Below, one piece after another: positions 1 through 3,000 of a stretch of DNA of 4,102 nucleotides. Each line of letters begins with the position of its first letter. Position 1 is the first letter of the stretch. Origin of the DNA: a virus (Duplodnaviria > Heunggongvirae > Uroviricota > Caudoviricetes). A program made the position numbers. The DNA lies in the IMG/VR virus record IMGVR_UViG_2703718820_000006; one strand, 5' to 3'.

Positions 1-3000
1 GACATATCTGACGAACCTGTATTTCAAAATTAAAGAAGACCGGCGTAAGGCGGCGCGGGGAGAGTAGACGATGAATAAACAATACGAACTGGTTGTTAAA
101 GGGATAAATATTTACCCGGATAAGATTACTGGGTATACGTCACTGTTGTTGCCAAATGTGGTGATTGATCTTGATCGTGTTGAAGGTGCCCCGCTGGAGT
201 TTTACGAAGCTGAGGCGAAAAAGAAGGCGAAGCAGTTTTTCATGGATATTGCTGCCGGGTTATGTGAAGGGAACGAACCGTTGCCGGAAAAGCGCCTCTG
301 TTCAGAAGAGCGGTATACCATACAAATTAACAATGCATATAACACGATACAGTCAGAAAAAGATGATATCGAATCACGCATTGAAAAACTGGAGAACAGC
401 GTCGTTGAACTGAATAAAAAACTGTCGGTGCAGATCCCTTCCGAAGGTGAAAAAAAACGCCGTGATGAGCAGTTCGCGGCGTTTTACGATTATTGCCGGA
501 AAGTGATGAGCAGAAATCTCGCAGAGTGTTTCCGTATTCAAAAAAACAGAGAGCGCTCTGCAAATAGTGAGATTCTGGATAATTTTTTAAAGGGGACGCA
601 TCTCGCCAGTGATTGTTTCATTGCTCATTCTTTTGGTGGCTTTCATGAGGCCATCAAACATGATGTTGAGAGAAGTCCAGGTATCCTCTGTTCCATTCCC
701 GTAAGCATCGAAATAGACACAAATACGATAACCGGTGAACTCGTTACCGCCGGAGTCGGTATATTCCGTCATGAGGGGAACGATGCCAAAGGTTCCTTTA
801 CAAAAATCGGGCCGTTCTTTCTGAAGGTAGAGCGATAGTTTGTTAAGTACCCATCCGACAGCTCGCTCATTTTGGTTTATTTTCGTATCGCGAAACAAAA
901 ATTCGAAGCGGCCAGATGACGCATGGGTGCAACCAAATACCGGGGCGTATTCATCAACCTTTGGTGTTCCTGAAAACATGCAGTCCGTGCTCTCGAATGC
1001 AGATGAATTGCTGTTGATCCACTTAACAAAAGAAAAAAAGGTCTGAATCGCTTGTCTGTCTGAATATTCAACAAAATCCTCAAGGTGTGTCTCGATCAGT
1101 TCCGGGTGTTTACGAAAGTCATAATATTGACCGGGACGATATTTATGAGTGGTTGTTTTATCCCATGGTTGTGCTCTGCGTCCCTGTAAACGGAGGTCTG
1201 CCGCTGGATAGATAAGCATAAGTAATCTCCTGGTGGAATGTAATCCACGATCATCCGGGGAAATTAAGAACCCGCCAGTGCCCACCACTGGTGGGGTGAA
1301 GGCTTAACATATCCAGGGATTCGGAACCGATAAATCCTGATAAATATCCATGAACACCAAAATCAAATACGGCCTGTCGGCTGCCGTTCTGGCGCTGATT
1401 GCCGCAGGGGCGCCTGCGCCTGATATTCTCGACCAGTTTCTGGATGAAAAAGAAGGTAACTACACCACGGCATACCGTGATGGTGCGGGTATCTGGACCA
1501 TCTGCCGGGGTGCCATCATGGTGGATGGTAAGCCTGTGATTCCTGGCATGAAGCTGTCGAAGGAAAAATGCGACCGGGTTAACGCTATCGAACGGGATAA
1601 GGCGCTGGCATGGGTGGCGAAAAACATCAGAGTGCCACTGACCGAACCTCAGAAAGCGGGGATCGCGTCATTCTGCCCTTACAACATTGGCCCCGGAAAG
1701 TGTTTCAGCTCAACGTTTTACCGGAAACTGAACGCCGGAGACCGTAAAGGCGCATGTGCTGAAATTCGTCGCTGGATATATGACGGTGGTCAGGACTGCC
1801 GTATCCGCTCAAATAATTGCTACGGTCAGGTATCCCGTCGCGACCAGGAGAGTGCGCTGGCATGCTGGGGTATCGACAGGTAGCAGAATATTTTGCTGAA
1901 AAATGACGTTTGCTCACGCGGACGGATAACACGAAATCCTGCGAACTGGCAAAATGCAAGTGAATAAAGTCAGGAAGATTGTTTCACGCAGAGGCACCGT
2001 AATGGTGTCTTTGTCATTTCTGCGCTTCGCACAAGCGTAAATAAACCAAAGAACCTTTCAGGATGAGCCCTGGTGGATAACCGGCAGTGGTCTGGTTAAC
2101 CCTCTTTGGGCTGGTTATTCCTGTGCGCAGGGTTCATCACTAAAAGGAAATAACCGATGAATATGATAACCGTGCCGTTTCACGGCGATTCTCTTTATGT
2201 GGTTAACCATAACGGCGAACCATACGTTCCCAAACCTGTCGTTGCGGGGATGGGGCTGGCCTGGCAATCACAGTTGGCTAAGTTAAGACAGCGTTTTGCG
2301 TCAACTATAACGGAAATCGTTATGGTTGCTGAGGACGGGAAACGACGCAATATGGTGTCCCTGCCACTTCGAAAACTTGCAGGCTGGTTACAAACCATCA
2401 ATCCCAACAAAGTAAAACCCGGAATCCGCGACAAGGTTATCCAGTATCAGGAAGAGTGCGACGATGTTCTCTATGAATACTGGACGAAGGGTTTTGTCGT
2501 TAATCCTCGTCAAATGAGCGTGATGGAAGAACTCAACCAGGCATGCGCTGACATGAAACGGGATAAAAACATTGCCAGTCTGTTTGGTACAGGGTTAAAC
2601 GAATGGAAACTGGTTAAAGCCGCGCATGTATCAAAAATTCGCACGTTGATAAACGAAGCGAATCTGCTGATTGGTTTTGTCCTGGCTGATACAGGCAAAG
2701 GAAAAATCACAAAGACGGATTGATGGAGTGGCGTCTAATGATATCAGGCAAACTCATAATGCTGGCGAAGGGCCTTTGTGTAATCGTCGGGATTTCATTT
2801 TCACTAATGCTGGTTGTTCTTTTTCCTTCCATAGCCTGGATGGCGTTGAGTTCGGCAGGGCTGGTGGGGTGACAGTGACTGATGACGACAATTTATTTAA
2901 ACAGATGAGTACTGAATTTATTCGGGCAACGGCATTTGCCATTCGCATTGTGGCAATTGCGGTTCTAATCCGGGAAATCCGCTGGTGGTGAAATGAATAA

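Follow-up and report, generated by a model that had tools for sequence, protein, structure and literature searches.

A predicted multi-pseudoknotted, two-state mRNA leader before an antirepressor-like gene in the late region of a lambdoid phage

Masking of the ribosome-binding site at the RNA level governs antirepressor synthesis in the immI regions of P22, through sar RNA, and of P1 and P7, through c4 RNA (PMC12197685). In the IsrK–orf45–anrP system of Salmonella Gifsy-1, the antirepressor mRNA adopts an inactive structure A or an active structure B, and the balance between the two decides synthesis (Hershko-Shalev et al. 2016, PMC4825925). IsrK, which has its own promoter and terminator, is encoded just downstream of a Q-like gene; the system works via a 45-codon upstream open reading frame (ORF), and the short IsrK RNA acts as the switch in trans (PMC4825925). 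Here we describe a conserved element in a 4,102-nucleotide (nt) stretch of caudoviral DNA from IMG/VR record IMGVR_UViG_2703718820_000006, referred to below as the window; features lie on its + strand unless stated otherwise. The element occupies the last ~135 nt (2021–2156) of a 273-bp spacer (1884–2156) between the endolysin gene R and an Ant-like gene of 188 amino acids (aa) that starts at ATG 2157 (2157–2723). It is probably a cis-acting, multi-pseudoknotted + strand mRNA 5′ leader controlling translation initiation of the Ant-like gene, and most likely acts as a translational on/off leader.

The leader resembles IsrK–orf45–anrP in being a prophage antirepressor mRNA with two alternative structures; unlike that system it follows the lysis genes, contains three pseudoknot-type helices, lacks a conserved upstream ORF and shares no sequence similarity. 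No coupled upstream ORF of the IsrK type was found in it: the sole leader AUG (GGAUGA) is lost in Xenorhabdus, Sodalis and Kp4875-type members, and frames and stop codons vary from member to member. Whereas sar and c4 are separate antisense RNAs, the masking strand here lies within the same leader. As in translational riboswitches and riboregulators, the expression platform overlaps the Shine–Dalgarno (SD) sequence and follows an SD, anti-SD, anti-anti-SD logic, with the anti-SD held by an upstream pseudoknotted domain; unlike riboswitches, the leader matches no known class, and the genes that host it are those of phage Ant, KilA-N, Rha and HNH proteins, not metabolic genes.

Start sites locked in a hairpin are also a feature of the Mu com/mom, T4 e and soc, lambda cIII and hok mRNAs, where they are opened by a protein, an alternative 5′ end or slow refolding. 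Those structures are single helices or simple alternatives, each confined to one phage group, whereas the leader is a mobile cassette placed before many unrelated genes across genera. A cmscan search of Rfam 15 at E ≤ 1 matched nothing in the window, nor anything on the element in four relatives; there was no match to sar, C4 or IsrK in this library, in which the presence of each of these families is unconfirmed. No prior description of the leader was found in the literature, sequence-string searches included. The leader represents a new family of two-state mRNA leaders with a complex, pseudoknotted structure: the general SD, anti-SD and anti-anti-SD logic is known, and what is new is the combination of three long-range helices and a swappable apical hairpin as a mobile cassette.

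Recurring elsewhere as a unit of ~120–135 nt, always before another gene, the leader is matched by BLAST in 317 phage records (Shiga-toxin phages, Salmonella ST64B, SPN9CC and SE1, Klebsiella phages and ECP1) and by motif scan in more than 120 IMG/VR viral contigs. A gapped pattern run against the GTDB Enterobacterales species representatives gave 24 true matches and 3 chance matches. The leader is found in prophages of at least a dozen Enterobacterales genera, among them Raoultella, Erwinia, Pantoea, Tatumella, Serratia, Yersinia, Edwardsiella, Xenorhabdus and Sodalis. It is carried by 879 of 5426 complete Escherichia coli genomes (about one in six), at a median of 3 and a maximum of 10 copies per genome, and by phages 933W, Sp5 and the O104:H4 phage P13374, the last being the closest relative of the window (99.6% identity across the spacer). 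In the records examined, including all 879 E. coli carriers, it is unannotated.

The genes placed after the leader vary. In a Klebsiella phage it lies upstream of a KilA-N gene among the tail genes; in Salmonella ST64B and SPN9CC it follows Rz; ECP1 has it ahead of an HNH gene and ahead of a KilA-N gene; and P13374 has a second copy, ahead of a Rha-family gene. The conserved AAAAGG is followed at 7–11 nt by the start of an ORF (40 aa or longer) in 118 of 121 loci. At least six domain families are represented downstream (KilA-N, Rha, ANT, AntA/B, HNH_3 and P22_AR_N), and owing to this heterogeneity conservation stops exactly at the start codon. In the window the product is an Ant-like protein with P22_AR_N (E = 1e-41) and ORF11CD3 domains, assigned to PHROG 524 (‘anti-repressor Ant’). 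Copies were also seen on tiny contigs of non-enterobacterial assemblies, one of Xanthomonas pisi (L146, 392 nt), nearly identical to the window with 3 differences in 197 nt, and one of Kocuria sabuli (L131, 700 nt), of the Klebsiella-phage type; assembly contamination most likely accounts for both.

Members were compared in alignment A2 (51 representatives) and alignment A3 (77 distinct sequences), the latter fitted to helices H0 and S1 by covariance model R1, which was built from those two helices only. R1 locates the window leader at 2005–2162, scoring the + strand at 120.7 bits against 14.5 bits for the − strand. With R1, additional diverged copies also came to light in Edwardsiella, ECP1, Sodalis and two viral contigs. 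Each covariation test was run against 500 shuffles, of which none (0/500) reached the observed score in any test, and against a slid control, in which shifting the partner by 1–3 columns dropped pairing to 4–71%. Taken jointly in A3, H0, a and S1 are paired in 96.5% of cells, with 18 pairs changed on both sides and a covariation score of 0.207 versus 0.077 in shuffles (slid controls, 29–57%).

Hairpin H0 (2022–2038) pairs GCGCTT (2022–2027) with AAGCGT (2033–2038) around the loop CGCAC (2028–2032); all of its cells are paired in A3 (100%), and two pairs are changed on both sides (CG 63, UA 12, UG 2). Its loop pairs in turn with GTGCG (2123–2127), 95 nt downstream and between c′ and the SD strand, to form pseudoknot k. 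Loop and target covary (UCACAC/GUGUGA, UCUCAC/GUGAGA, UCGCAC/GUGCGA, UCGCUC/GAGCG, UGCCC/GGGCA and CGCCC/GGGCG), with 99.5% pairing and a score of 0.351 versus 0.080 in shuffles (slid controls, 4–71%). Helix a joins 2047–2052 to 2103–2108 (5′ strand CAAAGAA, 2047–2053; 3′ strand CTCTTTG, 2102–2108) and occurs in at least eight matched variants, for example CACAGAA/TTCTGTG, CTCAG/CTGAG, CCAAG/CTTGG, CAAAG/CTTTG and CCCAG/CTGGG, and further CAGAGAG/CTCTCTG, CATAGAG/CTCTATG, CGCAGAG/CTCTGCG and CACCG/CGGTG. In A3 it is 96.4% paired, and four of its seven pairs are changed on both sides, one of them being AU 44, UA 16, CG 15 and GC 2.

Helix S1 consists of the anti-SD strand (2054–2072; CCTTTCAGGATGAGCCCTG, as RNA CCUUUCAGGAUGAGCCCUG) and a 3′ strand (2128–2147; CAGGGTTCATCACTAAAAGG, as RNA CAGGGUUCAUCACUAAAAGG) that includes the SD sequence AAAGG (2143–2147); it is 94% paired in A3, and 10 of the 13 pairs of its main part are changed on both sides. 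Contained within the anti-SD strand is the 5′ strand of helix c, CAGGA (2059–2063), whose alternative partner is the anti-anti-SD, c′ (TCCTG, 2119–2123); helix c is 99.2% paired in A3, with three of five pairs changed on both sides. Because a, c and k lie outside R1, the support for these three is independent of the model that made the alignment. Covariation supports five predicted helices: H0, k, a, c and S1. The apical hairpin P4 (2075–2101; GGATAACCGG at 2075–2084, loop CAGTGGT, CTGGTTAACC at 2092–2101) is kept as a shape: in per-sequence folding 40 of 40 distinct family variants form a hairpin, of at least three types, using unrelated sequences (CCGG/UCGG, CCAG/CUGG, UCAG/CUGA and AUAGUCA/UGACUAU).

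Two other candidate pairings were rejected. A fully nested rod of helices b, c, d and P4 was set aside, the changes in b being mostly one-sided and wobble-compatible, b itself being broken in Edwardsiella, and d being only 64% paired; c alone was kept from it. Helix e, joining the 5′ arm of P4 to CCGGAUUCC, shows no covariation.

Some phages carry two or three copies of the leader, each with different helix-a and k ‘specificity’ triplets (L001:4487–4640 in P13374, L127:853–1013 in ECP1, L134:5124–5278, L133:6979–7133, L075 with three copies, and L014:2182–2339). A diverged subfamily has a longer S1 and scores 60–73 bits. Locus L047 (2503–2657) is a natural recombinant with a window-type H0 and a 933W-type 3′ half; its k carries a mismatch (TTCGCAC with GTGAGA), since the two halves come from window-type and 933W-type members.

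Helices S1 and c share the same 5′ nucleotides, CAGGA, and both partner strands show compensatory changes. The covariation is three-way: most members combine CAGGA with c′ UCCUG and S1 3′ strand UCAUCACUA, Edwardsiella second copies combine CAGAAA with UUCUG and UCAUUUCUA, and one viral contig combines CGGGG with UCCCG and CACCCACCC. Other single substitutions are compensated in S1 and stay G–U-compatible in the alternative helix. Because the 5′ nucleotides are shared and both partners covary, the comparison shows the leader to have two mutually exclusive predicted folds, S1 with a buried SD and a/c/P4 with a free SD strand. Examined as an SD, anti-SD, anti-anti-SD switch, it has an SD paired upstream with covariation and an anti-SD with a second, exclusive partner that is itself selected. 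Helix a and full-length S1 would likewise exclude each other on steric grounds, since the stretch made up of the S1 5′ strand and P4 is bracketed by two nucleotides that form the innermost pair of a; with the S1 5′ strand extended in an 18-bp helix, the distance between these two would be too great for the pair to form. H0 and k are compatible with both folds.

S1 is part of the minimum-free-energy fold of the window (z = −3.4). Over 51 members its mean ensemble probability is 0.85, the probability of an unpaired SD is 0.07 and opening of the SD costs ~6.6 kcal/mol. In prefixes that end before the SD strand, helix c has a probability above 0.5 in 42% of members and helix a in 23%; with the anti-SD strand so often paired in these prefixes, the alternative domain can form first during transcription.

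Pairs of the G–U type outnumber A–C combinations by 19 to 5 in S1 and by 7 to 1 in H0, and the leader has a fixed position, 8–11 nt before start codons; this excess and the fixed orientation indicate that the functional strand is the + strand RNA. Promoter scans found no σ70-like site on either strand at 1200–3000 or 1850–2200 of the window, and no + strand promoter-like site in the ST64B copy or the Entomohabitans prophage copy; LexA-box, σ54, σE and σ28 motifs were sought by eye only, and none fits. Directly ahead of the leader is an inverted repeat already seen in a preliminary description of the window, AGGCACC (1992–1998) and GGTGTCT (2004–2010), which is present as described and, with its loop GTAAT and the U-rich tail TTGTCATTT directly after it, makes up a terminator-like hairpin (1992–2019). 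Of 68 distinct upstream flanks, 60 have a GC-rich hairpin and T-run directly before the leader. The hairpin of the window is a weak example, with one G–U pair and an interrupted U-tract, and was accepted in our own scan and left unflagged by a consensus terminator scan, which flags the matching site in one relative. Annotated examples of the leader are all co-oriented with late genes. A probable terminator upstream together with no detectable promoter suggests read-through from the late operon, not independent initiation. P4 followed by the U-rich 3′ strand of helix a was considered as an attenuator terminator; it is flagged in type-I members, but the U-tract is absent in window-type and Kp4875-type members, and the resemblance was judged coincidental.

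These observations can be assembled into a mechanism for the translational leader. It would be transcribed by read-through from the Q-antiterminated late operon, and as only antiterminated late transcription would enter it, a transcriptional lock would be followed by a translational one. The a/c/k/P4 domain, being complete before the SD strand is made, would fold first and give a translatable state, in which CAGGA pairs with UCCUG in helix c, helix a closes around the anti-SD strand and P4, and the SD strand is free. In the OFF fold, 2054–2072 would pair with 2128–2147 as S1 and bury the SD in the thermodynamically favoured, silent state. The balance between the folds would be set by kinetics, by a protein or by a small ligand that stabilizes the H0–k–a–c–P4 domain.

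Several points weigh against control of translation by such a leader. The support for it is comparative or predicted throughout, kinetics, protein and ligand are only candidates for the trigger that would select the fold, and bistability in vivo is read only from covariation and topology. Alignment A3, being fitted by a model of H0 and S1, leans to these helices, and many members are closely related, so that cell counts overstate the number of independent events. Helix e has no covariation, and in the column-wise test of P4 the three P4 types do not align with one another. Finally, a non-consensus or activator-dependent promoter may lie inside or upstream of the leader.

It is conceivable, although we think it unlikely, that the H0–k–a–c–P4 domain is a sensor, either the aptamer of an orphan riboswitch or a site at which a specific phage or host factor docks, which would gate late translation of Ant, KilA-N, Rha and HNH proteins. 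Self-cleaving activity of the nested double pseudoknot would be a less likely form of this idea.

More doubtful is a stable or self-processing non-coding RNA acting beyond its own gene, as a small RNA (sRNA), a substrate of RNase III or RNase P, or a new self-cleaving ribozyme, for which SD pairing would be secondary. The compact, very conserved fold of five to six helices would suit such an RNA, S1 is long enough for an RNase III substrate, and the strand order, with P4 set between the 5′ strands of a and c and their 3′ strands, would correspond to P1, P2, P3, P1′ and P2′ in the nested double pseudoknot of ribozymes like that of hepatitis delta virus (HDV). Helix lengths and junctions differ, however, and SD pairing is not a feature of the HDV-like class; no covariance-model match places the leader in that class, which the strand order alone resembles. 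Even at E ≤ 1, no Rfam ribozyme or sRNA family matches, and the element was never found apart from a start codon. The homologous R–ant spacer of Sp5 (NC_002695.2 1273543–1273812) is missing from a published catalogue of Hfq-crosslinking sRNAs of E. coli O157 Sakai, and EcOnc12 sits after Rz, outside the leader; the missing entry is consistent with a leader that is silent in lysogens. The preliminary description had offered a small RNA as its fallback, and there the RNA-level function is nearer the truth; a free-standing sRNA gene is not, since the element runs into the ribosome-binding site.

That description had preferred a DNA-level explanation, an independent promoter for the Ant-like gene with three direct-repeat operators bound by a repressor and kept off in the lysogen, and this we regard as improbable. 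The repeats are real: CTGGTGGATAACC (2070–2082), CTGGTTAACC (2092–2101) and CTGGTTATTCC (2111–2121) have CTGGT in common and are 19–22 bp apart, the spacing being 22 nt and then 19 nt. H0, too, is a DNA palindrome with covarying halves, as in heteroimmune operators. CTGGT is over-represented across the whole window (17 occurrences versus 6.2 expected, with 0 of 200 shuffles reaching 17), so that sharing this pentamer counts for little by itself. Because GGTTAACC is identical to its own reverse complement, GGATAACC and GGTTAACC can also pair with each other as a hairpin. Repeats 1 and 2 form the arms of P4, and the end of repeat 3 contains c′ (2119–2123). Being arms of the P4 of the window variant, repeats 1 and 2 are not conserved: among related elements CTGGT repeats occur only in window-type and Xenorhabdus-type variants, and most relatives carry GGATACCGG...TCGGTGCC or quite different sequences in their place.

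Against operators, furthermore, the covarying partners in a, c, k and S1 lie 50–110 nt apart, which fits no operator geometry, G–U pairs are tolerated and A–C combinations are not, and with differing downstream genes no cognate regulator travels with the element. Against a promoter stand the probable terminator immediately upstream and the lack of a σ70-like site on both strands of the window and on the + strand of two relatives. With repeats that are specific to a variant, no σ70-like site in the spacer and covariation of the RNA type, the independent promoter and operator find no support. What stands of the proposal is a control region dedicated to the Ant-like gene in the 3′ part of the spacer, one that travels with such genes. 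A − strand segment within repeat 1 (2074–2082, TTATCCACC) agrees with 8 of the 9 positions of the DnaA-box consensus in the window-type variant only, probably by chance.

It is very improbable that the leader is a mere DNA homology ‘linker’ for module exchange, conserved through recent spread. It does sit at mosaic junctions, and the L047 recombinant joins a window-type 5′ half to a 933W-type 3′ half; recent spread leaves unexplained the dozens of compensatory double changes in five helices and the replacement of P4 by unrelated hairpins, and the mismatched k halves of L047 indicate that covariation is not automatic. A − strand antisense RNA covering the ant ribosome-binding site, as sar does in the control of the P22 antirepressor (reviewed in PMC12197685), can be set aside as the least credible explanation: the − strand also folds (z = −2.2), but R1 scores it at 14.5 bits versus 120.7 bits on the + strand, G–U pairs become A–C mismatches on it, scans of the window spacer showed neither a promoter-like nor a terminator-like site on the − strand, and no Rfam family matches, sar or other.

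The remainder of the spacer and its neighbours place the leader in a lambdoid late region of the Shiga-toxin phage type. The view that the 273 bp hold no convincing ORF is borne out: ORFs wholly inside the spacer have 20–29 aa only, none is conserved, and the window lacks a counterpart of the 39-aa ORF that is annotated in a 933W-like phage. The endolysin-proximal segment (1884–1968, the first 85 nt), outside the conserved leader, is about 92% identical to DNA after R in H-19B and other phages, which have no ant gene at the matching position. The spacer thus reads as a mosaic of an R-linked 5′ part and the recurrent 3′ leader. A palindrome, AGCAGAATATTTTGCT (1882–1897), spans the stop codon of R and is conserved in H-19B-type phages.

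Upstream are a DUF1327 gene (71–838), in which family matches cover residues 1–160 only and the rest is a 3′ extension, and, overlapping that extension on the − strand, an ORF of 210 aa without known family (587–1219; no Pfam, PHROGs, NCBIfam or PADLOC match), which may be a moron, as yet unclassified, that took the place of the end of the DUF1327 gene. There is no holin gene between this ORF and the SAR-type endolysin R (1350–1883). After ant come two small hydrophobic membrane ORFs (2720–2872, phrog_4906; 2875–2991, phrog_3246/4493), a Dam-family N6-adenine methyltransferase (2993–3760; TIGR00571 at cut-off, PADLOC type II methyltransferase, E = 4e-92) and Rz (from 3769), so that the Ant-like gene, both small ORFs and the methyltransferase are all placed between R and Rz. 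The methyltransferase, inside the lysis cassette here, is absent at the same position in P13374 and 933W-like phages. The second small ORF ends ...IRWW directly before the ATG of the next gene; as a very similar ending, CGCTGGTGGTGAAATG, precedes Rz in H-19B (locus L003, about 1700–1880), this mini-ORF seems to belong with the Rz junction. In a 933W-like phage, a − strand segment upstream of the holin gene (L002:550–626) weakly resembles, terminator included, the enterohaemorrhagic E. coli sRNA Esr41, at a sub-threshold 24.5 bits versus a gathering score of 102.

The silence of resident prophages, Shiga-toxin phages among them, depends on antirepressor, KilA-N and Rha proteins, and for the copies of these genes in late regions no description of their control was found in the literature. 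The leader is a directly testable handle on their expression, offering a compact and strongly supported RNA structure with precise, mutable nucleotides in medically important phages (933W, Sp5 and P13374) and in many enterobacteria. It explains the ‘empty’ gaps of ~270 bp in late operons, and adds a complex pseudoknotted RNA family that is missing from Rfam and from current genome annotation. If the domain is a sensor, Shiga-toxin phages and roughly one complete E. coli genome in six would harbour a structured regulatory RNA of a new class, which could link prophage cross-induction to a cellular signal.

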